DNA of 64,000 nucleotides from a virus. Lineage: Duplodnaviria; Caudoviricetes. The notes under the pieces were generated by a model, which did no database searches, had not been told where the DNA came from, and saw only the letters and a list, made by a program, of their open reading frames with translations. The stretch spans positions 1-64,000 of IMG/VR virus record IMGVR_UViG_3300025389_001172. One strand, written 5' to 3'. Position numbers and translations under genes: made by a program. Positions 1,312-61,895 of this stretch are shown here, one piece after another. Positions within the stretch are counted from its first letter, which is position 1; each line of letters starts with the position of its first letter.

Positions 1312-2415
1312 CTAGTCTGTTAACTTTGATAATAACATTGTACTATGGAAAAACCGTTGTGTCAATGATTCTGCCTGTCTTTGGATAGATCCAATAGTGT
1401 TTTCGTAATTGTCCATATGTCCTACTATAGTTTTGATTAATAAATGTCTATTTTGGACATAATCACCCCATGACTCAGTCCATAGACTAGGATATTTGAA
1501 TTGACCTTCATACATCTCGGTATAGCTCAGACGATCCGGAACCACAGGAATGGCACCTACTAGTGCGCCTTCATAGCATGAAATACCTAGTGTTTCCTGT
1601 AGGTTAGCAGAGAATACTATCTTGGCTTCTCCTAGGAGATTATGGTATTCCATTTTGCTTAACTGTTGATCCTGACATACCACGAATTCGTATTCGGGTA
1701 ACTGCTCTTTTAGGTCACGGAATATCTCAACCTGCTTTTCTGGAGCGATGCGATGTGGAAATAGTATCAAATCACGTTTAGGCATGTTCTTGTATGGAGT
1801 TAAGATCTCGTCCATATATTCCATAGGCCAACCTGTGCGTATGATCTTATTAAACTTACCGCTTAACACTTCTTCCAGTTCTTCTTCGTACCAAGGATTT
1901 TCATATATCGATCCGCTCTGAAGTAATTCACGGAAGAACATCTCGATATGAAAATCTGTGGCAAAATAATTATGGTCGTAGCAGTGATAGAAACTCTTCT
2001 CAGCATGTCGGACCCACGGCGCATTGCCAATCAACCTGCCTAGGAAATCTTGAGGATCATAAGATCCAGCGTGCCACAGACCATGTGTGGTCACTGGTAT
2101 CCCTAAGAGCTCACTCATGTATTTTAGATTGATGACCCCAGGATGCCAAGCATCAGTAAAAAGAAAATGATCACCAGGCTTAACTGATCCGGAGCAAAAT
2201 AAACGACCCATTTGCTCAACTTGCCGAGACTTGTATATATTGGTACCACCAAAATTAAGAAAGGCGCCAGGAGTAGTGGCAGTAGGAATATCCTCAGGCC
2301 CGCATATAACTTGAACATCATGTCCTGCCTTTTTAAGTAGTTTAGGAATATGTGATTTCCACTCGCCGGTATAGCGAGTGGATACAGCTTCGAGATCAAC
2401 GAGAAAAACGGTCAT
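1312..2415 (-). CDS. GT-B fold (GT4-like) glycosyltransferase
   Basis: FPHRIAPEKQ, QETLGISCYEG and PVVPDRLSY nucleotide-sugar-binding motifs; start taken at MTVFL. Confidence 0.75.
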   Translation of the reverse strand: MTVFLVDLEAVSTRYTGEWKSHIPKLLKKAGHDVQVICGPEDIPTATTPGAFLNFGGTNIYKSRQVEQMGRLFCSGSVKPGDHFLFTDAWHPGVINLKYMSELLGIPVTTHGLWHAGSYDPQDFLGRLIGNAPWVRHAEKSFYHCYDHNYFATDFHIEMFFRELLQSGSIYENPWYEEELEEVLSGKFNKIIRTGWPMEYMDEILTPYKNMPKRDLILFPHRIAPEKQVEIFRDLKEQLPEYEFVVCQDQQLSKMEYHNLLGEAKIVFSANLQETLGISCYEGALVGAIPVVPDRLSYTEMYEGQFKYPSLWTESWGDYVQNRHLLIKTIVGHMDNYENTIGSIQRQAESLTQRFFHSTMLLSKLTD

Positions 2416-2668
2416 CTCTCTTACCTTTATAAGGCTCACGTACACGCACTGGCTCTGGAATACCAGCGGCTTCTCGACGTGCTTTGCGCTCTAGGTACTC
2501 TTGAGTACGCTGGAATGCCTTGTAGTCAACACTGCGATATAGATCCGCAGGATTAAATTCAATAAGATTGATCCTACAATGATCAAGCCACTTGTCCAGG
2601 TCATCGAAAATCTTTGAGACTTCAGGTTTCAAACGGAGTGTTTTTTTAATATAGGCAGGAATTGCCAT
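2396..2668 (-). CDS. Hypothetical protein
   Basis: 90-aa ORF with AAGGA RBS, in operon. Confidence 0.6.
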   Translation of the reverse strand: MAIPAYIKKTLRLKPEVSKIFDDLDKWLDHCRINLIEFNPADLYRSVDYKAFQRTQEYLERKARREAAGIPEPVRVREPYKGKRDDRFSR

Positions 2669-2684
2669 TTTTATTTCCTTTTAA

Positions 2685-3071
2685 TTAAGGTTTATATTCG
2701 ACGATACCATCTGATTCGCCGTCCTCTGATACTACTACTTCATAATATCTTTCACCGTACTTTGGTAAAAGATGATTCTCTAAAATATCTGTAGCGATCA
2801 TTTCACATGATTTGTGATTTTGATCTCCAGACTTTATAAAATCCTGCAAGGCCCATTTCACTAGAAAAAATTCTAATTCACGATCTAGATGTTCAACGGA
2901 GATCTTTACTTCTACCTTGAACATATGACGATGTTCGTTTTCTAGGAATTCGATGCGAGGATCGATGGATCCTGCAAGTGGATAAAAATGGAAACCTTCA
3001 AACTCTGTCCTGACCTTGATATAGGTCATTTTGTTCGGACGCCAGTCCTGCCTTAATATATTTGCTGTCAT
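2685..3071 (-). CDS. QueD-like T-fold protein, DpdL-like (candidate CDG decarboxylase)
   Basis: FEGFH...LENEHRHMF (LxxxHRHxF), SCEMIA, VSEDGE; lacks the QueD CxxxHGH motif; near dpdA. Confidence 0.7.
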   Translation of the reverse strand: MTANILRQDWRPNKMTYIKVRTEFEGFHFYPLAGSIDPRIEFLENEHRHMFKVEVKISVEHLDRELEFFLVKWALQDFIKSGDQNHKSCEMIATDILENHLLPKYGERYYEVVVSEDGESDGIVEYKP

Positions 3072-3595
3072 TCTATGATCTCATCGTTAGAGTATTCATC
3101 CCAATTGGTAAAATATTTGCGTTGTGTAATGGCGCCAATCGGTATACACCATACACCCGGATTTGAGGCTTCAAAGCCTACATCATCAATCTTTATTGTA
3201 GCATTATAACCTAACTGTTGTAAATAGGGCAGTTTCACCGAAATCTGTGGTATGAATCTACGATATTCAGTTAATCCACTTTCTAATAGTCCTTCTGCCT
3301 GTGCCACATCTAGATCTAGAGTACACCAAAGATCAGCACCAAGGCATGCCTCGATCATGATCTCCCATGGAGCCCATCCTTGACTGTCATTGACATCTAG
3401 TCGGGGAAAGCTCTGATTGGCACCAAAATAGATGTGGCGGCATTCGTTTTTTTCTGCTAGTTCTAGAACTGTGCCGATACTGTGGACTCCGACTACGAAC
3501 AGGGTCTTCATACCATAGGCAGGAGTGCGTTCTATTTCTGTGCCTATGAAAAACTCTACTGCTTCTGATTCACCTGTGTTATACGTTCTTTTCAT
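3068..3595 (-). CDS. Conserved-looking hypothetical protein in the deazaguanine cluster
   Basis: 175-aa ORF coupled (ATGA overlap) to the DpdL-like gene; HIYFGANQSF and KIDD...SNPGVW. Confidence 0.6.
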   Translation of the reverse strand: MKRTYNTGESEAVEFFIGTEIERTPAYGMKTLFVVGVHSIGTVLELAEKNECRHIYFGANQSFPRLDVNDSQGWAPWEIMIEACLGADLWCTLDLDVAQAEGLLESGLTEYRRFIPQISVKLPYLQQLGYNATIKIDDVGFEASNPGVWCIPIGAITQRKYFTNWDEYSNDEIIE

Positions 3596-4009
3596 ATTTC
3601 TTAATCTCTTGTTCTAACTTCCAATTTTTCTCAAGTAAATCATTATTCTTTTTTCTTAATTCACTTACATCATCTAATAGACTGGTATTTAGGTTTTTAT
3701 TATATTCTAGATCTTTTTTCAATTTGTCGTCAGTGGATGGCTGATGTTTTTTATTATTATTATCGGCCGCCTGCTTTCCTGCATAAAATGACAAGATCGA
3801 CATTAGTAAAAATAAGATATAGTCCATTAGTCTTTCTTTGAAACAAGCTGTTCAAGCAATAGTATAATATAACAGAATGTGATCAGATGAGCAAGATTAT
3901 ATGCGCCCACCATACTGAACAGTACATAGGCCGCAACAAATATGATAAATCGGAATTCTTTTAATTTATCTGATTCCACCTTGATCTCATCTAAGATTTT
4001 CTTTATCAT
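3579..4009 (-). CDS. Two small membrane proteins (3579-3827, 3827-4009)
   Basis: Hydrophobic segments; overlapping start/stop codons. Confidence 0.55.
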
Positions 4010-4326
4010 GATTCTTCACCAAATTCTTCATCGAATTCTTCATGGCCGAACCAATCTTGTAATTGTTCTTTGAAAGATTCATCTTCCTTTAACCAATGTT
4101 TGATCGCCTCTTGATCCTCTTCTTCGAGACTATAATAGGCATCTCGGAAATATTCAGCCTGTTCATCGCTGGCTTCCTCACGCATATTTTCGGCCATTTC
4201 GTATGATTCATCATCATCGTTTTCGGCCATTTCGTCTGCGGCAACCCAACTGTCCCAAGCATCGCTGTGTGCTTCGTCATTTAATGATTCAATAATATCA
4301 AATACTTCATCTAGAGTTTTCATCAT
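4006..4326 (-). CDS. Highly acidic small protein (possible DNA mimic)
   Basis: About 40 D/E versus about 6 K/R in 106 aa. Confidence 0.55.
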   Translation of the reverse strand: MMKTLDEVFDIIESLNDEAHSDAWDSWVAADEMAENDDDESYEMAENMREEASDEQAEYFRDAYYSLEEEDQEAIKHWLKEDESFKEQLQDWFGHEEFDEEFGEES

Positions 4327-4826
4327 TCCTCCACAAACTCAACGACATTACCATCTGCATCGGCAGCAATAATACGCACACGCTCCCCTGACTCGTCTAA
4401 GATTTCAATTGGTCCCCAGATCCACCATTCAGTTTCATCGTTATACCAAGAATCTTCTTCGCGATCTTCTAGATCGTAGACGCTGTTTTCATCGATGAAC
4501 TCTTGTAGCTCTTCTTCAGCTTCTTCGTCCAGTCCTTCGATATCAACGTCATACCAGCATCCGCCATCGTCCATGCTGACCAATTCTACATTTTCAATAT
4601 TTTTATATGAGCAATCGAGCATATTGATGCTGTCTCGCTTGCCGTCACCACCGGGCACTTCTACGAAATCAAACTCCGGTGGATTGTCATCTGAGGTTTC
4701 TACGGTCCACTCGCCCCAACGGAAACCGTTGGTAACAGTAAGTCGTCCTTCGCCTTCGTTTTGACGCCAGTGTTCAACTTCTTGACAGCTTTTCTTGTAG
4801 TAGGTTTTAACGGTCCATGTAGCCAT
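4323..4826 (-). CDS. Acidic, Trp-rich hypothetical protein
   Basis: 167-aa ORF, coupled to neighbours. Confidence 0.6.
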   Translation of the reverse strand: MATWTVKTYYKKSCQEVEHWRQNEGEGRLTVTNGFRWGEWTVETSDDNPPEFDFVEVPGGDGKRDSINMLDCSYKNIENVELVSMDDGGCWYDVDIEGLDEEAEEELQEFIDENSVYDLEDREEDSWYNDETEWWIWGPIEILDESGERVRIIAADADGNVVEFVEE

Positions 4827-4828
4827 GA

Positions 4829-5228
4829 TTAGTTATCTACATCCATAGTGTTCCACTCTTTGATCACAGCGATCATTTCTTCTTCAGTGCTACACATGAT
4901 CTTGGCAGTCTTCCAATCGCTGTCGTCATCACGACCTCCTACTTCGACCATCCAGCCATTGTCATAGCGATTGAGTGTGATTGATTCATTTACTTTTGCT
5001 AATTTTTTTAATTTTGATGCCATTTTAATTCTCCTTTGTTTTCTTCTTACGTGCGGCTTTGGGTTTGACTTCTGTTAAACTATCTAATGCGGCCTGTACA
5101 TCACGGGACAATGCTTCATCATCCCACTCTAATGTGGTCTTACCATCCTCGTGAGTATACACAGTAAGGTGAGATCCTTTGGTCACCTTGGGCCATGCTA
5201 CTGATTCTTCTTTTTTCTTTCTAGGCAT
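4829..5228 (-). CDS. Two small hypothetical proteins (4829-5023, 5025-5228)
   Basis: Tightly packed ORFs with RBS. Confidence 0.55.
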
Positions 5229-6774
5229 TTATCAATCCCTCCTCTAGAGCTCTTAAATCGTCATCATCAGGATTTGCTAAATCGATCTCATCCTGTTTGG
5301 TCACCACTGTTTCAAATAGGCTATTGAATGTATTCTGTGCAGGACCACCCTGTAGTCGAGCACCTTCTAGGCTACGCAGGAATGGACCAGCTTCTTCTAT
5401 CAGAGCAAAGGCCGACGCCTTATCTGCAGTTTCAAATAGTTCTGCTACGAACTTGTTGAAGTAGAGTATGTTGCGTGGAACCCAGTCTGAGTATTCATCG
5501 CTCATATCTTGGGACTTGACCTTCTTCCAACTACGCCAATTGATTTTAGCCTCTGTCTTGGCACACTCGATATCCATCAACTGCTGGGCACGCTGTACCG
5601 CAACGATATGACAGTAGACATTATGTCCCATCATCAGTGCATAGGCGAAACTATCCCAAGCAGTCTTACCTTCTTTGCCAATCTTGTTCAACATACCCGG
5701 AGCATAGTGGCAGATATCGCCTACTGTGAGTCTGCGACCAATTTCACTTTCGAATGGGAATGGGATGTCTGATTCGGCGAGTGCCTTGTTGTCGAATGCC
5801 TTGTCCATAATAACGCTCCAACGTTTCGGAGTGTGGACTGCGTTGGTATAGACGAGACCGTGTGCTGTTGCGATAAACGGAGAAGCGCAGTCGAAGCTGA
5901 TGGTAAGTTCTTCATTGATGTGTTTCCTTATCTGTCTCTGTATCAGGGTCAAGTAGCATGACCAATCCAACTGTGCTGTACCCAAGAAGTGTATCCAGTT
6001 CTTACCTGTAAGCATACCTTCATCACGCATAGTCATCAGACGCTTGAGAGTGATGTCCATCTTACACATATTGGCACCACCGAATGCCCAACCTTCTGCC
6101 TCACGACCAGCATACTTGCCTTTAGGATCTGAGAACTCTTTTACACCGTTATACCATTTTTCAGCTGTGTCCCAATCACTTCCCTGTAGCACGTTCAACC
6201 ATTTGGTAGCACCTAGTCGATTCATCAAGAAATAGTCATTGTTGAAACGAGTCTTTTCCAAGCAGTCTTCAAATGTTTTCAATCCTGTCTTTGGTGAGTG
6301 GATGTGATCGCAGGCCCAGGTAGGAACGTCTAGCATCATGCTCCAATCAGCAGTGGCTTCTAACCACTCCAAGATGCTCTGTCGAGTCTTGTTGGCAGCC
6401 GGCCCATCGAAGTTCAACCAATCAAACTTCAGTACGCCTTTACCGATCTGGTATCCACCGGAATCACCTAGGATCATAGTAGCACCGCGATCGCGTTGTT
6501 GTATCATAGACTCCTGTGTCTGTGCCTTGACGATATCTAACTGTGCGTGACCTGCTGAATACAGGGCATACTTGTAGGTAAAATATCCATCTTCTGGATT
6601 GAGAAAGTTCATACCTTCGATACCTCGATCAAATCCTGCGGGGATACGATCTTTGGGCACGAACTCTTCTAGTCTCTGTTTGGCTACATAGGTGCTATAG
6701 AACGAGCTGATAGCTGGCAAATACACAGCAAAATCGCTTTGGAGTGGGGTTAGGTTAACTGGTGGTCTTTTCAT
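5221..6774 (-). CDS. dpdA: TGT-fold base-exchange transglycosylase, DpdA-like (7-deazaguanine insertion into DNA)
   Basis: TGT motifs in order: DSGGYQ, MLDVP, VLQG, GWAFGG, HFLG, SFDCAS; adjacent to clamp and polymerase; folE and queD in same window. Confidence 0.8.
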   Translation of the reverse strand: MKRPPVNLTPLQSDFAVYLPAISSFYSTYVAKQRLEEFVPKDRIPAGFDRGIEGMNFLNPEDGYFTYKYALYSAGHAQLDIVKAQTQESMIQQRDRGATMILGDSGGYQIGKGVLKFDWLNFDGPAANKTRQSILEWLEATADWSMMLDVPTWACDHIHSPKTGLKTFEDCLEKTRFNNDYFLMNRLGATKWLNVLQGSDWDTAEKWYNGVKEFSDPKGKYAGREAEGWAFGGANMCKMDITLKRLMTMRDEGMLTGKNWIHFLGTAQLDWSCYLTLIQRQIRKHINEELTISFDCASPFIATAHGLVYTNAVHTPKRWSVIMDKAFDNKALAESDIPFPFESEIGRRLTVGDICHYAPGMLNKIGKEGKTAWDSFAYALMMGHNVYCHIVAVQRAQQLMDIECAKTEAKINWRSWKKVKSQDMSDEYSDWVPRNILYFNKFVAELFETADKASAFALIEEAGPFLRSLEGARLQGGPAQNTFNSLFETVVTKQDEIDLANPDDDDLRALEEGLINA

Positions 6775-12063: not shown

Positions 12064-15000
12064 TTTTTACGTTTTTTAGGAAGTACACGTTTAGGTAATT
12101 TACTAATATCTTTTCCTGTGTCAGCGCGATTGAACTCTTTGGCCACATTAGTCTTGATACCAACTTTCTTTGCGAAAGCAGGATTATGAGCGGCTGCTGC
12201 CATCATCTGTGCCTGTGCTTGACTAACTGAACGCTCGTCAACTTCGCGATCTAGCTTTTCCTGAAGACGATTGAGATAGTTTTCAGTTGATTCTCGCTTG
12301 GCGGCACTGTAGGGCATGGCCATGTTTTTTACATTGTTGATAGATACAGCACCTACAGATCCTGCTGGAGCTGGTATAGTTGTTTCTGGTGTGCGATCTG
12401 GAAATAGTTTCTCGGCTCTCTGTATGATCTCAGGTCGCAGGGCCAATCCATTGGTATCTATAGGACCTGCTGGTCTGTTTAACTGTAGCATGCCTTTCTT
12501 GGTATTAAAATCACCTACCTGTGCTCCGGCGGCATTTTTACCTAGCGTATAATCTTTTATCTTTTCTGGGTCTGTATAAGGTGGACGTGTCATGCCCATG
12601 CCATTGGCTGCGATATAGGCGCCCCACCACCATGCCCAACTTTTACCTGTATCGGATTTGGCTGGAGCCGGGCGACCGAGGTTTATGGCCTTGCCAGTTC
12701 CTGGTTCTGCCTGCTGTCCTACTGATTGATAGATGCTGTCTAGATCGCGGCGTGTTGCTTCTCTCTGTATACTTTCGGCAGCACCACCTACTAGATCACC
12801 TGCACGGGCTGGAGAGTTCTTTTTAGGACCCTTGTTGCGCCATTGGCCTGCTGGACCTAGTTTATTCTTCTTGCTACCTGCGAACACGCTGGCCGGCAAC
12901 ATGGCTTCCATAGCACGATCATCGTGACCATTGCCTATCAACTTGCTTGATACATCTATAGCTGGTCTCGCTGCCTGACCCCAACCGCCTGTGGCTGTGG
13001 AGTGATCTTCATCATAGATATGACCCTGCGCATGTTGGCTCTGTAGATAGTTTGATACTGTGACCATGTTCTGTTTGCTCATGGATATCTTTTCTTCTAC
13101 CCATTCTGGTAAGTTTTCACCTGACTTTAATGTGTCTGCTAGTTCTTTACAGGCACGTATGATTGTCAGTAGATTGTTTTCTACCATATCTACTTCGTCT
13201 GAGTATTCATTATACTCGTCACCTTCCGCCACACCTTGCTCCTCAATGGTGGTGTTGTGTAGAATAAACACTGCATTAGGATCCATGCCTTGTGTATAAT
13301 ACTTAAAAATAGCCGGGGCATCCCGGTATTTCATGCGTTGATAGTCCCCGCCTAATCTACGTGCCATAGCAGAATAAATTCCTTGATGTTGTGAATCAGC
13401 TAAAAATATCAAATACTCTGGATCAATTTGTGCCACCTGTTTTTTCACTGCTTCTACCACAGTGGTCAAAATTTTTGTAGCATCTCCCTGACCTGTTAAT
13501 TGCACCTGTCCATTGACATTAAAGTCAATGCTCATAATTTTTATTTGAAGCCTAGGATCATATCTCATTAAACAAGTTATTTTTCTACCGTCTTGAGTAG
13601 TGGCACTTACTTCTGTGTCTCGAAAATCTATCTTTTTTGTTTCAATAGGATAAGAACTGTTGGGATTGAACAATTCATTTAACTTACCTTCCGCTACACC
13701 TTTATCTACTTTCGTCCAACTTATTTTTTTACCGTCGGGCAAGGTAGCAAAACACGGACCGTCGATCATTTTAGCCTGCATGATTTTAGCAGTAGGAAAC
13801 TTGCTCTTGACTAAAGCCATCCATTCTTGCTGAGTGCGGCCTTTGGCATCAACAGCTCTGGCCTGCACAGGTCCAGCTTCTTCTGACACACCTGGCTGGT
13901 CCAGATCCTGTCCAGTGACCTTTTTCATATCCTGGTGGGCTTTAATGAAACGATCTGCTGGAATAGCATTGGGACTTCCAAAACTATGATAAACGTTTAC
14001 ATCTTTTGGTAGTCCCGGCATATGGTCGGGCTCTTTTCCTTGTTCGCCTCCTTCTAAGTAGTAGTCAATGATCTTTCTTAGTTGTTTTTGTAGCGGCTTG
14101 TTCATCCAGAAATATGTGTCTATAGCATCAAATATCAGTAACCATTGATCTGGAACATCGCCGCTGAACCAATGCATGGTTTTACCTGACTGTAGGTCTC
14201 TAACATCCATGCTGTCAATTTGGAAACGCTGGTGTTGCTGTTCTATAAAATCAATTGGGCGTATGATAAAATTCAACTGCTGGTTGTTGGGACCTTGTAG
14301 TACTACTTCAAAATCTGTTTCGCTTACGGTGTCAACGTCGGTCACATGCCATGGATTGTTACGAAGATCATCCAACTGATCTTCCGCCACACCTTGCTTA
14401 AAACTGTTAGCACTGATAATTTTTACATTAGCAGGAACACCTAGTGCTAATGCGGCATAGAGCCGTGTTCTACCACCAATTACATAAACACCTGTAGGTA
14501 ATTTCAATAGCACTGGTGGGTCGTAGTTTCCAGATTTGACATATTGGATGTAGCCAGTTATATCACGCTGGCGTCCCTCACCTGCATCACGGGCCTGCAT
14601 CAGTTTTATATATTGTTGTTCTGCATCTGGTCTGCCACTAATCTGTTGGATTGCTTTCAATGTTTGAGCATCGTTGCCTTTGTTGGCAAGATTTTTTAAT
14701 TTAGGAATGCTTGCGGCAGGTATTTGTGTAGATGACGCTCTATCAATAATAGGTGTTATTTTTTCCACACTTTGTTCATCATTACCGTATCCCATTTGTT
14801 TGACAAATTGTTGTATTTCTGGCACAGGTTGTCCTACCAATTCCCACGCTTCATCTGACGATGCTTCATTTAAGAAGCCTTCCGCCACACCTTCTTTAGG
14901 CACACAATTATTGACACGAACTCTGCCTTTTATTTTAGTAGCAGGTTTACCTATCTTTTTGTTGTGCCAGCATCGAGCATCTAGACGTTGTTTAACTTCC

Positions 15001-42194: not shown

Positions 42195-42494
42195 ATGGAA
42201 ATCATTATCGCTATTGCTATAGTAATTGGTGCTGTTGCTGTGTATTTCAACCGTAAGCCAAAGACTGTAGAAGTTACAACAGAAGTACCTTACAAGGTAG
42301 AAACACCTACAGTTGAAGAAGCTCCTGTTGTTACTACAGAGACTGTCGAAGCTGTTATCGCTGGAGTACCAGCTGCCAAGAAGCCACGTAAACCACGTGC
42401 TCCAAAAGCAGAAGCTACTGCTAAGAAACCAGCCGCAAAAAAAGCCCCAGCAAAAGCCAGGGCTACTAAAACAGTAAAATCAAAGAAAGCCTAA
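42195..42494 (+). CDS. Membrane-anchored protein with Lys/Ala/Pro-rich tail
   Basis: N-terminal TM segment; KKPAAKKAPAK tail; AAGGA RBS. Confidence 0.7.
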   Translation: MEIIIAIAIVIGAVAVYFNRKPKTVEVTTEVPYKVETPTVEEAPVVTTETVEAVIAGVPAAKKPRKPRAPKAEATAKKPAAKKAPAKARATKTVKSKKA

Positions 42495-43508
42495 TTTCTG
42501 CGCTTGCCTAGCTAGTTCAAAACTGGCTAGGTTTTTTCCCTTACTCTCACACATTATATCGAATTGATCTAGAAACCCTAGGGCCCACGTGTTCACCGCT
42601 GTGTTCCACATAAAGTCAGAGTGGGCACGAAGTTTTTGCTTTTTATATCCCTGTTCGAGTAAGAGATTATAATCAGGGGAAATGTCTTGTGGATGATCGA
42701 CGAGATAGTCTTCCCTTGATTGGCTAAAATGACATACAGGGCGAATTCCACGCCAGCTATCTAGCAGTCTGGGGATGCGTGGGTCAGTGGGCTGGATGTA
42801 TTCGCCTTCGCGAATAAAGTAATGATGGACATCTAAAACCGTTGGTATGATGTCACTGAGACTGAGGCAGTCGTCAAGACCCCAAGAGTTTTCTTCGTTT
42901 TCAATTGTAATACAGTTGCGGGCTTCGGGTGAGAGGCGACTGTAGGCACTTCTGATACCCGCTGGACCGGCTCTACCCGCGATGTGGACATTAATTTTAA
43001 GGTCCTGGAATTTCTTACCATAGCCCATGAATCGTGCCATATCAGCATGATATTCAAACTCCTCTAATGATCTGTCGACGATGTCTGGGTTATCACTAGC
43101 CAGTACAGTAAACTGACCAGGATGAAAACTAAGACGTACATTGTGTTCACGAGCAATTTCGCCCACCCGGGCAAATCCTTGACCGAGGTATTGATCCACA
43201 TCAGGCCGAAGCCAAAAATAACTCCAAGACCGCTCAGTATAGACAGGAAGGATATCACTCCCAAGGCGGACCATGCGAAGGTGTTCATCTAGTGTACTGA
43301 CCCTTTCAACCAGCTTACGTACCGATTCTATGTTCTGTACCATTAGGTCCCAGAGCCGTTGTTCAGCTACGTCTTTGCTCTGTCTATTTAGCCAGGCCAC
43401 TGTAGTGGCGCCGGTGTTGTATTGTTTGGCATCATCAGTGGATTTGATGCCATCGACCTGGTGAGGATGGTCAATCCACTTACAGGCCCAGCCTATACGT
43501 TTGATCAT
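42480..43508 (-). CDS. uvsE: UV damage endonuclease (UvsE/UVDE)
   Basis: RIGWAC, VRLGSD, SFHPGQF, TIENEE, LDVHH, HFSQSR, RAHSD. Confidence 0.92.
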   Translation of the reverse strand: MIKRIGWACKWIDHPHQVDGIKSTDDAKQYNTGATTVAWLNRQSKDVAEQRLWDLMVQNIESVRKLVERVSTLDEHLRMVRLGSDILPVYTERSWSYFWLRPDVDQYLGQGFARVGEIAREHNVRLSFHPGQFTVLASDNPDIVDRSLEEFEYHADMARFMGYGKKFQDLKINVHIAGRAGPAGIRSAYSRLSPEARNCITIENEENSWGLDDCLSLSDIIPTVLDVHHYFIREGEYIQPTDPRIPRLLDSWRGIRPVCHFSQSREDYLVDHPQDISPDYNLLLEQGYKKQKLRAHSDFMWNTAVNTWALGFLDQFDIMCESKGKNLASFELARQAQKLGFL

Positions 43509-43707: not shown

Positions 43708-44646
43708 TTACACGATATTTCGGAAATAGTCAATGGTTTTTACCAACCCTTCTTCTAAAGGAATAGTCGGAGTCCAGCCCAATTTGCTGTTAGCTTTGGT
43801 GATGTCTGGACGTCTTTGTTTCGGATCATCTAACGGTAAGGGTTGCTGTACGATCTGGCTGGTACTGCCTGTGAGTTCTATGACCTTTTGGGCTAATTCC
43901 ATCATGGTAAACTCGCCAGGATTGCCCAGATTGATAGGACCAGGCACGCTGACATCAGGATCTAATGCCATATAACGCATCATACCATCTATGAGATCGT
44001 CGACGTAACAGAATGAGCGAGTCTGCTGTCCACTGCCATACATGGTGATATTCTCGCCACGCAGGGCCTGTACGATGAAGTTACTGACCACACGTCCATC
44101 ATTCTTGTTCATTCTAGGACCATAGGTGTTGAATATGCGAACGATACGCACATCTACATCGTGTACACGCCAGTAGTCCATGAACAGAGTTTCAGCGGCA
44201 CGCTTGCCCTCATCATAGCATGAACGGATGCCTATGGGATTAACATTGCCCCAGTATTCTTCTGGCTGTGGATGCACAGTAGGATCACCATAGCATTCAC
44301 TGGTACTTGCCTGCAGGATTCGAGCACCTGTTCGTTTGGCCAAGCCTAGTAGGTTATATGATCCCAACACTGAGGTCTTCATGGTCTGTATCGGATCCCA
44401 TTGATAAAAGAACGGGCTAGCTGGGCAAGCCAAGTTGTAGATCTCGTCTACTTCTACATATAATGGAAAGCAGACATCCTGTCGCATAACTTCGAAGTTC
44501 TTGTGATCTAATAGATGAGCTATATTGGCCTTGCTACCTGTGAAATAGTTATCCACGCAGAGCACGTGATGACCTTGTTCTACCAATCGATCACATAGGT
44601 GACTGCCTAAAAAACCAGCACCACCTGTTACTAATATTTTTTTCAT
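43708..44646 (-). CDS. UDP-glucuronate decarboxylase (UDP-xylose synthase)
   Basis: [52 protein letters not shown]. Confidence 0.9.
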
Positions 44647-45596: not shown

Positions 45597-46190
45597 TTAT
45601 CTGCTCTCGACGATCTTATCGCATAGCCCATAGGCCAATGCCTGTTCAGCCGTCATGAATGTGTCTCGATCCATATCTCGTTCGAAATCTTCGTAGGTCT
45701 TGCCTGCGGTATTGTGTTTGACATAGAGACGGGTCAACATATCTTTCATGTGCATGATTTCTTTATAACTGATCTCTATGTCCGATGCCATACCACTGGC
45801 ACCACCTGAGGGCTGATGTATCATATGACGAGCGTAGGGCAACATGAAACGCTTGCCTGGATGTCCAGCCTGTGCTAGGAATGAGCCCATACTACAGGCC
45901 TGTCCTATGACATAGGTGCAGACATTGGGTTTGATAAATTGCATTACGTCATATATTCCCATACCAGCTGTGATAACACCACCTGGGCTATTGATATAAA
46001 AGTGTATGTCTTTGTCACTGTCTGCTGATTCTAAGTGTAGCATCTGTGCTATGACCAAGCTGGCCGATCCATCATGGACGGCACCGTTGAGGAAGACTAT
46101 GCGATCGTTTAATAATCGACTGAAGATGTCAAAGGCACGCTCACCCTGGCCTGTCTTCTCCACTACCATTGGTACTAAATCTGAATACAT
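45597..46190 (-). CDS. clpP: ClpP protease
   Basis: DIFSRLL, YINSPGG, ACSMGS, MIHQP, DRD. Confidence 0.96.
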
Positions 46191-50984: not shown

Positions 50985-52757
50985 TTAGTCTTCCCAAGGT
51001 ATAGGAACCCATCCTAACTGTTTGAAATCATTGGCGATTTCTTCAGTTACTACACCCTCAGCCACATAACCCACACCTCGATCAGCGGATAATCCGTAGC
51101 CTTTATCAGTATCTCCTATTCCCGAACAGTACCAACTCAAATAGTCGCCCTCTCCTGTAATATCTGACACGATACGTCCGGCCGCTCGCCAACTACAGCT
51201 CCAGAGATCGTCTTTCAGTATGGACATAGTGTCTTGGGCAGAATCGCCTGAGATCTTGCACCAACGCATATTACACAGGGCCGCATAGATATTTTGGGCA
51301 TAGTATCTGAGTTCTCGTGCCCTTGATACTATATATTCGGAATTTTCCAGATCTTCTGCTAGGTCCATAAGGCATCTCGTATCTTGATCAGTCGGATCAT
51401 CATGGCCTCGTCTTCAGCTTCGTATTCAGCTTCCATTTTGGTGAGCTGTTTATGGGCACGATCGTATTCTTTCTTCAGCTCTTTTGGTGTGGCAAAAGAA
51501 AGACGCCCACCGTTGATCTCACGAGCACGCTCACAAATAGCAGTCCAACCGCTCGCCTCATAGGGATCTGGCCTGCAGACTCGAGTACACTTCCACCAGG
51601 TATAGAGATCAAGTATCTCCTGTGCTCTTATAGCCTGTGGTGTAGGTTTACCGTAGAGTTTATGATCTTCCCCTACTCCGTCACCTTCTCCGTGAGTCAG
51701 CTTAATTTGCCAATCGAGATTATCCAATCCAGCCTGTGCAGATCTCCATGTACGCCAGCGGAACCAACCACGGGCCCAAAAAGGAGCCTGATACTTTTTG
51801 CCTGCTTCTTTGTCCCAAGCTATGTGCCACCAGGCTAATTCTACCTCAACAAAATCAACAAGCTCGTTAAAAAGACAAGGTAAAAAACGATTGCCCACAT
51901 CACACCAAGTACCAGGCTTGATATCACGATTATGGGCAGTAAGACTATGAGTTCTAGTAACCCAACGATTATTGATATAATACTTGAGATCATAGATCCT
52001 CCTTGGTATATACATTATGATATCTTGTAGACGGTCAAGTCCGGTCTCAGCTATCCAATAGCGTACAGGTGAGGCTTTACGGGCTTCATCTTCCCAAGAT
52101 CCCCAAGCGTCTAATTCCATTGCATATGGCTTCGCGGTACCGCGGATCCAATCTGCTAGCCTACTATTTGACCAATATTCTCTCATTTTGCTTTCCTAAA
52201 TTCTTCTACATCTTCTACAGCGTCTTGTAGTATTGTAGCATAATTCATGGCCTGTTGTCTATCCATAATGATGTTCGATTCATATTTTATGTAACCCTTG
52301 GTCAACAGACGCCAAATATGGTGCCAACGGGTCCGGCTCCACCAATTAGTTTTACTTGTGGTATAGACAGTTACAGTAACGCCTGATTCATCTGCTTCGA
52401 CGAATATGTCATGGTTGTGATCATCCTGACCACACTCGCAGACTACCTTATACTGTTTGGCATCACCCCAATCATTTTTGATTAAGACGCCACGGGCTGG
52501 TTTTTCTGCTTTCATAATCATCCTCTTAATCCTGTACTGGTACGTGTTATCGCAGGTCCAGCTGATTCGAAATCCATACCAGCTGAGCGACCTTCGTAGT
52601 ATCTACCATTCCATTTCATAGATATCTTCACAGCCTTATTTACTATGACATTGAGTTTGACCTTGTCCTCAAAGGATTCTACCACTGCGGTAGTTTCTTT
52701 TGAGCTCTTGGCCATTTTGATCGTGCAGGTTTCTGCGTGGCGTACTATTTCACTCAT
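50985..52757 (-). CDS. Hypothetical proteins (50985-51368, 51359-52186, 52183-52521, 52518-52757)
   Basis: Translationally coupled ORFs. Confidence 0.6.
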
Positions 52758-53410
52758 TATTTTTTCTCAAAGTAAACATTTAATTCATTACCCATATGAT
52801 CATTTGATTCGATCTCGGTTATGGTAAATCCTTTTGATTCTAGGTATTCGCAGACATCATCTACGAAGTTTGTGCTTTCTTTATATAACTTGATTTCTTG
52901 ATCTCTTGCACACTCGATTTTACCAGTACGGATTAGATTGATATAGTCTCCCATCCCTTTGAGTACCTTGAGATCACTGCCCTGTGTATCACAATGGAAA
53001 AAATCTATATGATCTAGATCTGGTATGTTGTCTTTTATCCATGTGTCTAATCTGGATACCTTGACTGTGATTGAGCCCACGGCTGACAATTCATCTACCC
53101 TAGGAACTCCTTCAGCACTTAACCAATATTTTTCGATGGCTTCTTTATCGAATTGATTTAACGAGTTACAGCCCATTCCTGGATTATTCTGTATGAAGAA
53201 TTCAGCCTCGCCGTCGAATTCCTCGATAGCAGATTCTACCACAGTATATCTATCGCTGAAACTTCTGCTGGCATTTTTTAGGTGATTGGCTATATGGGGA
53301 GTGGGTTCAAAGGCCCAAACTACCACATTAGAGTCTTTCGCGCAGTTAGGAAGGCTGTCATCTCCCCAATTGGCTCCTACGTCAAACAACACGTAATTTG
53401 TTTCAAACAT
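52757..53410 (-). CDS. FkbM-family SAM methyltransferase
   Basis: FDVGANWG, AFEP, RLD, HCDTQGSDLKVLKG. Confidence 0.85.
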   Translation of the reverse strand: MFETNYVLFDVGANWGDDSLPNCAKDSNVVVWAFEPTPHIANHLKNASRSFSDRYTVVESAIEEFDGEAEFFIQNNPGMGCNSLNQFDKEAIEKYWLSAEGVPRVDELSAVGSITVKVSRLDTWIKDNIPDLDHIDFFHCDTQGSDLKVLKGMGDYINLIRTGKIECARDQEIKLYKESTNFVDDVCEYLESKGFTITEIESNDHMGNELNVYFEKK

Positions 53411-54511: not shown

Positions 54512-55261
54512 TTATTGTGGTACTGACAGATTATAATTAAAATGGAAAATACCGATGTGAGCAGTTTCACGACTTAACTGCTGATCACACCATATCTGAT
54601 ATCCTGCCTTTTGAGCCTGCTGACAGAAATAGATATCCTCACCGATTTCCAAATTCAGTGCGGGGATAAACTCTTGTAGATAATGCGGCTGTGGAATCTT
54701 TTCATAGACTTCACGCTTGGCCATAACCAACCCATGCGGAAGAACATCGATCAATTCCATATCTGGTGAATTGTCTGTGGTCTGGAATTCTGTAAACTGA
54801 CCAGCCCCACCACTCATACCTGTGAAGTTTGGATTTGGAAAACGACGGCGGCGATAGTTGGCACCGACGATTTCTTTGTTACGAGCCAACAATCTCATCG
54901 GAGCATCGATTGGAAACTTCATATCCGAATCTACCCAAAAGATATGACTGAAGTCACTCTTGAGGAAAATGTCTACTAGGTTACGTCGAGCGATTGTGAT
55001 AACTGATCCAATATTAAAAGCACAGTTGATCTTGATGCCATTAGCTACCATATTAGCTGCCGCCATAGCCAAGTGTTGTGCAAACTCCGCATTAACCATT
55101 TCCATAGCAGGCACAGCTATCATCACTGATGGTTTATTTCCACCAGCTACCTGACCTGGTTGGAATGTCTGTCCAGGTTGGAAAGTCTGTCCGGCGGCCT
55201 GCGCTGTAGGACGCTGTGGTACTGGTGGCCGGCTTGGAATGTTTAGTTTGTTCTTTTTCAT
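54512..55261 (-). CDS. GT-A (GT2-like) glycosyltransferase
   Basis: IARRNLV, FWVDSD (DxD), GEDIYFC, HIG. Confidence 0.75.
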   Translation of the reverse strand: MKKNKLNIPSRPPVPQRPTAQAAGQTFQPGQTFQPGQVAGGNKPSVMIAVPAMEMVNAEFAQHLAMAAANMVANGIKINCAFNIGSVITIARRNLVDIFLKSDFSHIFWVDSDMKFPIDAPMRLLARNKEIVGANYRRRRFPNPNFTGMSGGAGQFTEFQTTDNSPDMELIDVLPHGLVMAKREVYEKIPQPHYLQEFIPALNLEIGEDIYFCQQAQKAGYQIWCDQQLSRETAHIGIFHFNYNLSVPQ

Positions 55262-55358: not shown

Positions 55359-56117
55359 TTATCTCGGAGCAAATTCCTGTTGCAGTTTGATATTGTCAAA
55401 GAACTCTTTCTTGGTAGCAGGATCGGTCAAGAACGCACCTTTGAGCACCGTGGTCTGCGTCAATGAACTGTGTGCCATGATTCCTCTATTTTCACAACAT
55501 CCGTGAGTGGCTTGGATGTAGACTCCGACGTTTTCTGAATCTGTTGCTTTTGCAATCTCTCTAGCAATATCGTTGCATAACTCTTCCTGTAAAGTTCCGC
55601 GGCGAGCGCACCACTGAGCAATCCTAGTATATTTGCTAAGTCCAATGAGTTTATTTGCGGCGATGATGCCAATATATGCAACGCCAGCCACAGGTTGGTG
55701 ATGATGACTACACATACTACGCAATTCACTACGTACAACCAACATACCTTCATATCTATCCTCCGAATCATTGGGAAACGCTGTTGCGTCAGGAGCAGGA
55801 TCATATCTACCTGCCATGATTTCGTTGTAATACATTTTAGCTAATCGTCGAGCTGTGCCCTTTGAATTTGGATCGTTCTCTCTATCAATAAGTAGTGCAT
55901 CTAGCACACCTTCAAATGCCACAGTGGCCTGATCAATTAGTTGAGACTTAACTGCATCGTTGTTGACGTACTCGCTGATGTTGTCTCCTGCCCAAAATCT
56001 CTTACCATCTCTCTTCATAGAGTTCCTTAAGACCAGTGCTAGGTTAGGAGCATTTGGATTCTCCCACTCTACTGTTTCGCCTTCTTTGAAATCTTTGTAT
56101 GCTTTATCGTATCCCAT
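55359..56117 (-). CDS. folE: GTP cyclohydrolase I
   Basis: SMCSHH, GLSKYTR, LQEEL, HGCCENRG. Confidence 0.96.
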   Translation of the reverse strand: MGYDKAYKDFKEGETVEWENPNAPNLALVLRNSMKRDGKRFWAGDNISEYVNNDAVKSQLIDQATVAFEGVLDALLIDRENDPNSKGTARRLAKMYYNEIMAGRYDPAPDATAFPNDSEDRYEGMLVVRSELRSMCSHHHQPVAGVAYIGIIAANKLIGLSKYTRIAQWCARRGTLQEELCNDIAREIAKATDSENVGVYIQATHGCCENRGIMAHSSLTQTTVLKGAFLTDPATKKEFFDNIKLQQEFAPR

Positions 56118-58081: not shown

Positions 58082-58168
58082 TGGTGGGGAAGGTCGGACT
58101 CGAACCGACACGCCACTAAGGACCCTTGCTTCTAAGGCAAAGAAGACTACCAATTCCATCACTCCCCC
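58082..58168 (-). tRNA. tRNA-Leu(TAG)
   Basis: Cloverleaf with long variable arm, CT-TAG-AA loop, encoded CCA. Confidence 0.9.
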
Positions 58169-61318: not shown

Positions 61319-61410
61319 TGGCCGAGGGTCAGGGAGTCGAACCCTCGGATCAGGTTTCCCCGATCCGCAGTTTAGCAAACTGCTGATTTAAGCCACTCAT
61401 CCACGTCTCT
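61319..61410 (-). tRNA. tRNA-Ser(GCT), chimeric, with unpaired acceptor stem
   Basis: Good D, anticodon and variable arms; 5' AGAGACG does not pair with 3' ACCCUCG. Confidence 0.7.
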
Positions 61411-61411
61411 T

Positions 61412-61485
61412 TGGAGCGGGATGCGAGAATCGAACTCGCGACTAGAGCTTGGAAGGCTGTCGTTTTACCATTAAACTAATCCCGC
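61412..61485 (-). tRNA. tRNA-Gly(TCC)
   Basis: Cloverleaf, CT-TCC-AA, ends UCCA. Confidence 0.9.
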
Positions 61486-61563
61486 ATGTCGTATCACACT
61501 ACCAGAAACGGCTAGGCCTACTCGGTTCGGTGATATGTCTATAATTTACTTATTCACATCCTA

Positions 61564-61637
61564 TGGCGTCCCCCCAGGGATTCGAACCCCGACCGACGGT
61601 TTTGGAGACCGCAATACTACCCTTATACTAGAGAGAC
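61564..61637 (-). tRNA. tRNA-Trp(CCA)
   Basis: Cloverleaf, CT-CCA-AA, CCA end. Confidence 0.9.
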
Positions 61638-61643
61638 GATACC

Positions 61644-61718
61644 TGGCGGTCCCGAGGGGTAACGATCCCCTTCTTCGACAGTGACAGTGTCGTGTGCGTC
61701 CATGAACACTTCGAGACC
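61644..61718 (-). tRNA. tRNA-Asp(GTC)
   Basis: Cloverleaf, CT-GTC-AC; atypical T loop AUCGUUA. Confidence 0.85.
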
Positions 61719-61724
61719 TAATAC

Positions 61725-61800
61725 TGGTTGCGGGTCTTGGATTTGAACCAAGGATGGCAAAGGCTTATGAGACCTCGCTGGTGACCTGACCCTACCCGCA
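61725..61800 (-). tRNA. tRNA-Met(CAT) (Met/fMet/Ile2 not resolved)
   Basis: CT-CAT-AA loop, UGCGGGU/ACCCGCA acceptor, CCA end; weak D arm. Confidence 0.8.
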
Positions 61801-61811
61801 TAGATTGTGTT

Positions 61812-61895
61812 TGGTGGAGCATCCTGGGATCGAACCAGGCGTGCCAGAGGCGGCGGATTTACAGTCCGCTGAATCACCATTGATTCTTCTGCTCC
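61812..61895 (-). tRNA. tRNA-Tyr(GTA)
   Basis: Cloverleaf with long variable arm, CT-GTA-AA, CCA end. Confidence 0.92.

Follow-up and report, generated by a model that had tools for sequence, protein, structure and literature searches.

Why would a phage keep a glycosyltransferase among genes for exchanging the guanine of DNA for a deazapurine? The question is raised by a gene run at positions 1312-6774 of a 64-kb stretch of viral DNA (hereafter the window), which is the first 64 kb of the 141,321-bp IMG/VR contig IMGVR_UViG_3300025389_001172 (CheckV, 39% complete). The contig belongs to an uncultured freshwater giant phage in which the minus strand carries nearly all genes, and a nucleotide similarity search gave no DNA-level match to it among deposited phages. 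It is established that FolE, QueD and QueE make 7-carboxy-7-deazaguanine (CDG) and that DpdA enzymes exchange guanine in DNA for a 7-deazaguanine. We propose here, with about even confidence, that the run is the core of a phage module replacing DNA guanine with a 7-deazaguanine and that a sugar transferase is integral to this module.

Together with the subtilase gene that is cut by the contig end, the run comprises twelve packed minus-strand genes, which overlap or are separated by gaps of at most 16 nt. They are transcribed in the order 517-aa DpdA-like protein, six small open reading frames (ORFs), the 175-aa o175, a 128-aa DpdL, the 90-aa o90, a 367-aa glycosyltransferase (GT) and the subtilase (Table 1). 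The gene positions claimed in an initial annotation of this DNA, for the run as well as for the pair of queD and a UDP-xylose synthase (UXS) and for folE and an FkbM-type gene, were all confirmed, on the minus strand. DpdA, o175, DpdL and GT each alone reach no Pfam or NCBIfam model, so that the earlier calls for these four proteins had been made by motif; the calls were nevertheless right.

Table 1. Coordinates of the genes discussed, numbered from the first letter of the window.
Feature	Position	Strand	Remarks
S8 subtilase, cut by contig end	2..1303	-	Pfam Peptidase_S8
GT4-like GT-B type glycosyltransferase, 367 aa	1312..2415	-	frame open to GTG at 2445
o90, conserved 90-aa protein between dpdL and GT	2396..2668	-	overlaps GT start by 20 nt
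DpdL homologue, 128 aa, QueD-like T-fold, proposed CDG decarboxylase	2685..3071	-	motif LENEHRHMF
o175, conserved 175-aa alpha/beta protein	3068..3595	-	stop overlaps dpdL start by 4 nt
Six small ORFs (67, 64, 167, 106, 60, 82 aa) between dpdA and o175	3579..5228	-	variable cargo
DpdA-like transglycosylase, 517 aa	5221..6774	-	predicted TGT fold, catalytic Asp, GDSGGYQ
UDP-glucuronate decarboxylase (UDP-xylose synthase, UXS)	43708..44646	-	E 3.2e-123 to human UXS1
QueD-like 6-carboxytetrahydropterin synthase, 122 aa	44870..45238	-	Pfam PTPS 2.8e-11; phrog_2389 9e-31
FkbM-type methyltransferase	52757..53410	-	Pfam 1.1e-11
o249, possible GT-A-type glycosyltransferase	54512..55261	-	weak: phrog_12406 1.8e-6, phrog_1574
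FolE, GTP cyclohydrolase I, first deazaguanine step	55359..56117	-	Pfam 1.1e-38

The 367-aa protein, which the initial annotation had called a GT-B glycosyltransferase, is a predicted GT4-type enzyme with intact donor-binding residues, as judged from conserved residues and profile matches. Its true start is probably position 2415, as homologues begin at the MTVFL position. The family is large, with more than 8000 matching clusters at 90% identity (some of them named glycosyltransferase by JGI) and 1201 members at 50% clustering (E <= 0.001). An alignment of 12 divergent members shows no change at R222, K227 and E282 and almost none at E274; these residues form the R/K pair (R222/K227) and the EX7E motif (E274/E282) of retaining GT4 enzymes. 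The family profile matches the solved GT4 enzymes PglH (1.4e-5), GlgM (1.7e-4) and PglA (2e-4), and also PimA; the T4 alpha- and beta-glucosyltransferases are not among its PDB profile matches. Pfam Glycos_transf_1 matches eight of the 12 aligned relatives, the best at 6.8e-12. The cut-off of this model is also passed by GT388 of the Synechococcus phage BUCT-ZZ01, against which the window GT family profile scored 97.9%.

For the 517-aa protein, the predicted structure and three intact catalytic aspartates confirm the tRNA-guanine transglycosylase (TGT) fold that had been assigned to it earlier. An AlphaFold model built from an alignment of 28 homologues (pLDDT 85.6, pTM 0.85) had 200 PDB matches at E <= 0.001, and the 50 listed are all tRNA-guanine transglycosylases (best match E 1.2e-8, probability 1.0, TM 0.53 by target). 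Across the 28 homologues D104 (GDSGGYQ), D149 (LDVP) and D295 (FDC) are invariant, and we take these to be the equivalents of the catalytic D102, D156 and D280 of Zymomonas mobilis TGT. The CxCxxC zinc motif of TGT is not present in the 517-aa protein. In cultured phages, relatives were detected in the PA5oct group, in Sinorhizobium phage Phosso and in Vibrio phage 2.275.O, with 42% identity over the full length to PA5oct EST35_0316. In profile-profile comparisons, which covered the ACP17/BUDD type and phiST DpdA3, it matched the 416-446-aa DpdA proteins of ACP17, BUDD, BUCT-ZZ01 and relatives at 96% (E 4.6e-9) and the 259-aa phiST DpdA3 weakly, at 50%. The modelled structure places the protein among TGT-fold enzymes, as a large and divergent type of DpdA, and fold, catalytic residues and context together predict that it would exchange guanine in DNA.

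The third recognisable member of the run is the 128-aa T-fold protein, for which a DpdL identity was confirmed. The DpdL family, a paralogue of QueD, is defined by LxxxHRHxF and has been proposed to decarboxylate CDG (Cui et al., PMC10516641). The motif of the 128-aa protein (LENEHRHMF) fits this pattern, which replaces the CxxxHGH of QueD, and its family profile aligned with the founding member of the family, phiST CGPG_00067, at 98.8% in hhalign. The protein is 39% identical to the DpdL of ACP17 and 69% to that of BUCT-ZZ01; it matches phrog_17812 and has no direct match to Pfam PTPS. Its context here is FolE and QueD in the window, QueE at the syntenic place in relatives and no QueC on the contig.

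Does the GT belong with these enzymes? Its co-distribution with dpdA had been set beforehand as a check. The first set consisted of 80 related viral contigs fetched through the GT, in which the order DpdA, o175, DpdL, o90, GT, FolE, QueE is nearly universal; DpdL was found in 75 of them, FolE in 68, DpdA in 66 and QueE in 55, the misses stemming largely from short flanks. More distant relatives of the GT were surveyed through phage records and one-genome-per-species contigs. Among cultured phages, PA5oct has DpdA-GT-DpdL, then a short-chain dehydrogenase/reductase (SDR) fragment, a phosphoribosyltransferase and QueE; ACP17 has FolE, an o175-like gene, DpdA, GT, DpdL and QueE, with the GT between DpdA and DpdL; Phosso has DpdL-GT near FolE and QueE; BCSR5 and BUDD have GT-DpdA with DpdL and QueE; and in BUCT-ZZ01 (L113:5370-9527) two GT4-like genes flank a DpdA-DpdL pair. 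The survey of prokaryotes, which took one genome per species from bacterial and archaeal assemblies, returned 36 loci with a GT relative. A large DpdA directly adjoins the GT in 32 of these, the other four being short or cut contigs, and isolate chromosomes with the pair include Pelagibacterium, Methylobacterium, Magnetospirillum, Shimia and Sulfitobacter. The expected co-distribution with dpdA, in which dpdL shares, was therefore found in the 80 viral contigs, in six cultured lineages and in 32/36 prokaryote loci. Many of the counted loci are mutually related and do not represent separate events; what is independent is a set of about seven phage lineages together with several bacterial genera. 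The tight packing from DpdA to GT and the recurrence of the order in distant lineages argue that the grouping is not due to chance. Since DpdL occurs in only 20 of the 36 prokaryote GT loci, the GT-DpdA pair is the tighter unit.

These data bear on whether the GT might have nothing to do with DNA and instead modify a protein, the virion or the host envelope, its gene simply being packed with other early genes. Jumbo phages do hold many sugar genes, and the nearest solved relatives of the GT act on lipid-linked sugars. In the Xanthomonas phage PhiXhv-15, moreover, peripheral members of the GT family have GlmS and a deacetylase as neighbours and lie a long way from the deazaguanine genes. However, the adjacency recurs in unrelated phages and in bacterial chromosomes that share no other phage genes, which could hardly be accounted for if the genes had no function in common, and we consider a target of this kind improbable. 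At the PhiXhv-15 locus L319:5669-8903 a peripheral GT-family member is accompanied by GlmS and a PIG-L-type deacetylase; FolE and a weak DpdA-like ORF of that phage are distant from it.

On the isolate chromosomes the neighbours of the GT-DpdA pair include a CoiA-like nuclease, a HEPN protein, genes of ABC-3C type and a YhhQ-like transporter, a setting that looks like a defence island. In Magnetospirillum aberrantis (L297:2244-12823) and Shimia ponticola (L299:3743-13471) the islands have the arrangement GT-(DpdL)-DpdA and hold a CoiA-like nuclease, an LA2681-type HEPN protein, MASE1 histidine kinases, ABC-3C and a YhhQ-like transporter. Such islands may be a self-marking, restriction-type defence system.

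A different substrate for the transglycosylase also has to be weighed, namely tRNA. The window carries a tRNA array at 61323-61895 (Ser(GCU), Gly(UCC), Trp(CCA), Asp(GUC), Met(CAU) and Tyr(GUA)) and a separate tRNA-Leu(UAG) at 58082-58168; its tRNA-Asp(GUC) and tRNA-Tyr(GUA) are G34 tRNAs, which queuosine enzymes target. If the transglycosylase acted on tRNA, the GT would decorate the inserted base, as in the mannosyl- and galactosyl-queuosine of animal tRNA-Asp and tRNA-Tyr. In favour of this reading, the enzyme is predicted to fold as a tRNA-guanine transglycosylase, tRNAs with the G34 target are present in the window, and the animal queuosine mannosyltransferase is itself a GT4-family enzyme. 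On the other hand, the canonical zinc motif of TGT is absent from the DpdA, and the contig has no QueC and no queuosine-finishing gene (QueF was not separately searched), hence no cyclopentenediol to serve as acceptor. In PA5oct it is the DNA itself that is resistant at G sites: it withstands restriction enzymes whose sites contain G, and it is targeted by nucleases that sense modified G, the base not having been identified (PMC12191111). Together with the position of the bacterial homologues beside nucleases in defence-like islands, this makes tRNA a very unlikely substrate, and we return to DNA as the target of the proposed module.

A DNA modification of this kind would need a supply of CDG. 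FolE, which in most relatives sits just past the GT, and a QueD-like protein are both encoded in the window, outside the run; the latter reads CHLLHGY (CxxxHGY) where QueD has CxxxHGH, one histidine of the motif being replaced by tyrosine. The initial annotation had seen no QueC, and this was borne out on the whole 141-kb contig, where neither QueC nor radical-SAM genes were found (QueF and Gat-QueC were not separately searched). It had also noted that QueE is missing. Indeed, a radical-SAM model and tblastn with three phage QueE sequences detected no QueE in the window or in the rest of the contig; we attribute this absence to truncation of the assembly. Only 1.3 kb lies beyond the GT before the contig breaks off within the subtilase gene. 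In the closest relative, L007, whose GT is 89% identical, the GT is followed by the same S8 subtilase, an XGPRT-like phosphoribosyltransferase at 13145 and QueE at 14676. In G001 (353 kb, 98% complete), DpdA, o175, DpdL, o90, GT, FolE, the phosphoribosyltransferase and QueE all lie within 12 kb, and QueD lies elsewhere. Because the contig end cuts the very subtilase that precedes the phosphoribosyltransferase and QueE in relatives, we infer that QueE lies just beyond it. A phosphoribosyltransferase precedes QueE in PA5oct as well as in the relatives of this phage, and in BUCT-ZZ01 an XGPRT-like one stands between QueE and QueD; its presence hints at a step at the nucleotide level.

From these components the following pathway can be proposed. 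FolE, QueD and QueE would convert GTP to CDG, and the DpdL homologue would convert CDG, probably to 7-deazaguanine. The large DpdA would then exchange guanine in DNA for the deazapurine, and the GT4-type enzyme would add a sugar from a nucleotide sugar to the deazapurine, either as the free base or in DNA, resulting in a genome with glycosylated 7-deazaguanine. That the GT would glycosylate the deazapurine we infer from conserved gene linkage only.

Which sugar might this be? In the initial annotation each deazaguanine gene had a sugar-enzyme neighbour, and all of them were joined into one pathway leading to a possibly xylosylated base. If UXS, the GT-A-like protein o249 (the 'GT2' of that annotation) and FkbM did act in the same pathway, the product would be a xylosylated, perhaps methylated, deazaguanine. 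The UXS is genuine: the match to human UXS1 spans residues 2-310, the next SDR families reaching only about E 1e-40, and its gene lies directly downstream of the QueD-like gene, at a distance of 223 nt. Furthermore, o249 adjoins folE in 67/80 loci, and 36 of 80 queD loci have a sugar-nucleotide gene, a second GT or one unassigned ORF within 6 kb. However, an orthologue of UXS follows queD in only three of 80 close queD loci, and in about 30 loci queD is directly followed by uvdE, so that UXS looks like a sporadic insertion. FkbM is present in none of the 80 loci that share its neighbouring block and is probably an insertion special to this genome, unrelated to the module. As for o249, the conserved block to which it belongs also occurs without folE; its match to the PDB GT-A protein A197 has an E value of 0.98, and it has no Pfam match. 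G001 has the GT and lacks a UXS orthologue, FkbM and a GT-A homologue, no UDP-glucose dehydrogenase was found on the present contig, and the 80 GT-centred loci contain no UXS, GT-A-like, FkbM or other tested sugar-nucleotide gene. The single pathway drawn from gene neighbours is thus not supported, nor is the expected co-distribution of UXS with the module, and a xylosylated product through these three genes seems to us quite unlikely. Probably none of the three belongs to the core of the module.

Of the earlier proposal, xylose itself is unsupported, resting on adjacency alone, while a weaker form of the proposal fares better, as other sugar-nucleotide genes are embedded in the clusters of some relatives. 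In L119 (IMGVR_UViG_3300032225_001145; L119:6769-12061) a deoxysugar-tailoring cassette lies between queD and the phosphoribosyltransferase-QueE pair, and consists of a sugar C-methyltransferase, a cupin, a ketoreductase, a UDP-sugar dehydrogenase and an SDR, followed by the phosphoribosyltransferase. The BCSR5 cluster holds a PIG-L-type deacetylase, and that of PA5oct the SDR fragment mentioned above. The donor sugar is probably supplied by the host in most relatives, with some phages adding a tailoring cassette of their own. In the window, the queD-UXS pair is flanked by genes for a UvdE-type UV endonuclease (42480-43508) and a ClpP protease (45597-46190).

Several observations weigh against a glycosylated 7-deazaguanine as the end product. 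Taken alone, the window GT scores 14 bits (E 0.037) against Glycos_transf_1, below the cut-off of 26.4, and a look through longer proteins turned up no GT-DpdA fusion, though this counts for little. In the PhiXhv-15 group, peripheral members of the GT family are separated by some 90 kb or more from those deazaguanine genes that were found in the genome. No GT occurs within about 8 kb in seven DpdL lineages (phiST, MA9V-3, Bakedbeans, D479, Ahp1, RHph_I1_18 and Roos). Among these is phiST, for which 2'-deoxy-7-deazaguanosine (dDG) has been measured, so that the GT is not needed for dDG and is an add-on. The acceptor, for its part, need not be 7-deazaguanine, since many bacterial GT-DpdA pairs come without DpdL. 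Finally, 7-deazaguanine is without a hydroxyl group, and the acceptor atom is not obvious.

Part of this pattern would follow if the GT acted in the pathway and its sugar did not remain in the final DNA, either because glycosylation gives a transient intermediate or because the GT is an obligatory partner of DpdA, much like DpdB; the final base would then be dDG or 2'-deoxy-7-carboxy-7-deazaguanosine (dCDG). The GT tracks the large DpdA types (416-600 aa), and the GT-less DpdL lineages have small DpdA3-like genes (259-290 aa) or none identified; in many bacterial loci the GT and DpdA genes overlap. A base with no obvious acceptor atom, and a phosphoribosyltransferase that accompanies the cluster and hints at nucleotide-level intermediates, would suit such a role too. 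Against it, the donor-binding and catalytic residues of the GT are invariant, and embedded sugar-tailoring genes and a deacetylase make little sense for a sugar that is only transient. A further argument comes from Vibrio phage 2.275.O, in which an amidoligase-like gene occupies the place of the GT, so that the position after dpdA looks like a tailoring slot. On balance we regard a sugar that is lost before the final base as unlikely, and retain a glycosylated deazaguanine in DNA as the proposed product. The 2.275.O locus (L003:8908-11838) consists of a DpdA of the same large type, the amidoligase-like gene, QueF, a YhhQ-like transporter, QueC, an amidotransferase and FolE; the gene after DpdA was considered as a GT and rejected, its match being weak and amidoligase-like. 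Tailoring enzymes may be exchangeable at this position.

Comparison with known systems places the module between several of them. The DpdL/DpdA3 system of phiST, which makes dDG (PMC10516641), likewise has FolE, QueD, QueE, DpdL and a DpdA-type enzyme and no QueC; what sets it apart from the module is a small DpdA3 of 259 aa, the presence of MazG and of an unrelated 159-aa gene, and the lack of a GT. To the phiST set the module adds the 517-aa DpdA, the GT4, o175, o90 and, in relatives, a phosphoribosyltransferase. The bacterial Dpd system (DpdA, DpdB, DpdC and restriction genes), which places preQ0 (7-cyano-7-deazaguanine) and ADG (7-amido-7-deazaguanine) in DNA, resembles it in the insertion of a deazaguanine into DNA by a TGT-fold enzyme; in contrast, the window lacks DpdB and DpdC, the partner is a GT, and the DpdA is of a distinct, larger subfamily.

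For the sugar transfer there are two further parallels. The T4 alpha- and beta-glucosyltransferases, which act on 5-hydroxymethylcytosine, may be likened to the proposed role of the GT, as phage enzymes of GT-B type that use a nucleotide sugar and a non-canonical base and give protection from nucleases; unlike what is proposed here, they act on a pyrimidine hydroxyl, and they show no sequence match to the GT. In huimycin biosynthesis, HuiG glycosylates a free preQ0-derived 7-deazapurine with UDP-GlcNAc (preprint 10.64898/2026.04.15.718813). Judged by description, HuiG of the huimycin/dapiramicin type shares with the GT a GT4-type N-terminal domain (Pfam PF13439) and a 7-deazapurine as sugar acceptor, and differs in belonging to an actinomycete secondary-metabolite pathway with no DpdA and no DNA. 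The HuiG sugar is reportedly placed on the exocyclic 2-amino group. In the searched literature, no GT is described in deazaguanine DNA-modification clusters and no glycosylated deazaguanine in DNA.

A further link to published work concerns ACP17, whose DpdL and DpdA together gave no dDG in E. coli, the authors suspecting that further enzymes are needed (PMC10516641). In ACP17 the GT lies between DpdA and DpdL, with the o175-like gene beside them.

The remaining genes of the run are less easily assigned. The 175-aa protein listed as unknown in the initial annotation is real and conserved (71/80 related loci, 41-89% identity). Homologues adjoin dpdA in ACP17 and are found elsewhere in the PA5oct genome; the predicted co-occurrence with dpdA thus holds in the related clade, ACP17 and PA5oct. 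Its structural model (pLDDT 84.7) found no convincing counterpart among known structures, the best Foldseek E value being 0.019. The best VIA Z score, 7.5, is to STAS domains and covers the first 120 residues; over most of the length three QueE structures reach Z 5.8-6.4 and GH5 barrels Z of about 5.5. Atlas leads point weakly to TIM-barrel hydrolases, all below 0.9. We read the model as a partial beta/alpha barrel without assigned function. An identity as DpdM was rejected, there being no Pfam match of any kind and no cysteine-rich metal motif. A cut-down QueE is unsupported, with hhalign against the phages' own QueE at 0.5% and Z values below 8 being common among unrelated folds. Neither phiST CGPG_00066 (hhalign 0.3%) nor a 174-aa protein of BUCT-ZZ01, which is an exonuclease, is an equivalent of o175.

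The 90-aa o90 is present in 69/80 related loci at the same position, and had no family match in Pfam and phrog searches. We propose that o175 and o90 are conserved helpers. The six small ORFs are more variable, homologues of the 167-, 67- and 64-aa ORFs occurring in 14, 12 and 8 of the 80 related loci, respectively, at varying positions. The 106- and 167-aa ORFs (window 4006-4826), inside the modification operon between dpdA and o175, are very acidic and D/E-rich, and resemble DNA-mimic anti-restriction proteins in composition only.

To conclude, what is added for this window is the TGT fold of a large DpdA, a QueE placed off the contig, the negative co-distribution of UXS and FkbM, and the link to PA5oct. 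More broadly, and only tentatively, we suggest that the DNA of many phage lineages (among them PA5oct, ACP17, BUDD, BCSR5, Phosso and BUCT-ZZ01) and of some bacteria contains a glycosylated 7-deazaguanine, made by a dedicated pair of GT4 and large DpdA, the sugar varying by swappable cassettes. T-even phages, in which the sugars on hydroxymethylcytosine vary, offer an analogy for such a strain-variable sugar. To our knowledge, all known DNA glycosylations are on pyrimidines, namely glucosyl- and arabinosyl-hydroxymethylcytosine and base J. If the proposal is true, no purine of DNA was previously known to bear a sugar, and both the class of base and the enzymology behind it would be new. Glycosylation of a purine without a hydroxyl would be new chemistry too, since only an amine, a carboxylate or a ring carbon could then serve as acceptor. 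It would explain why DpdL and DpdA alone failed in E. coli, and DNA modified in this way would be refractory to many restriction enzymes and might interfere with the chemistry of sequencing. The GT family is very abundant in freshwater metagenomes and is carried by several cultured phages, including the therapeutic candidate PA5oct, for which a glycosylated deazaguanine would explain both the modification of G and what END nucleases recognise there.

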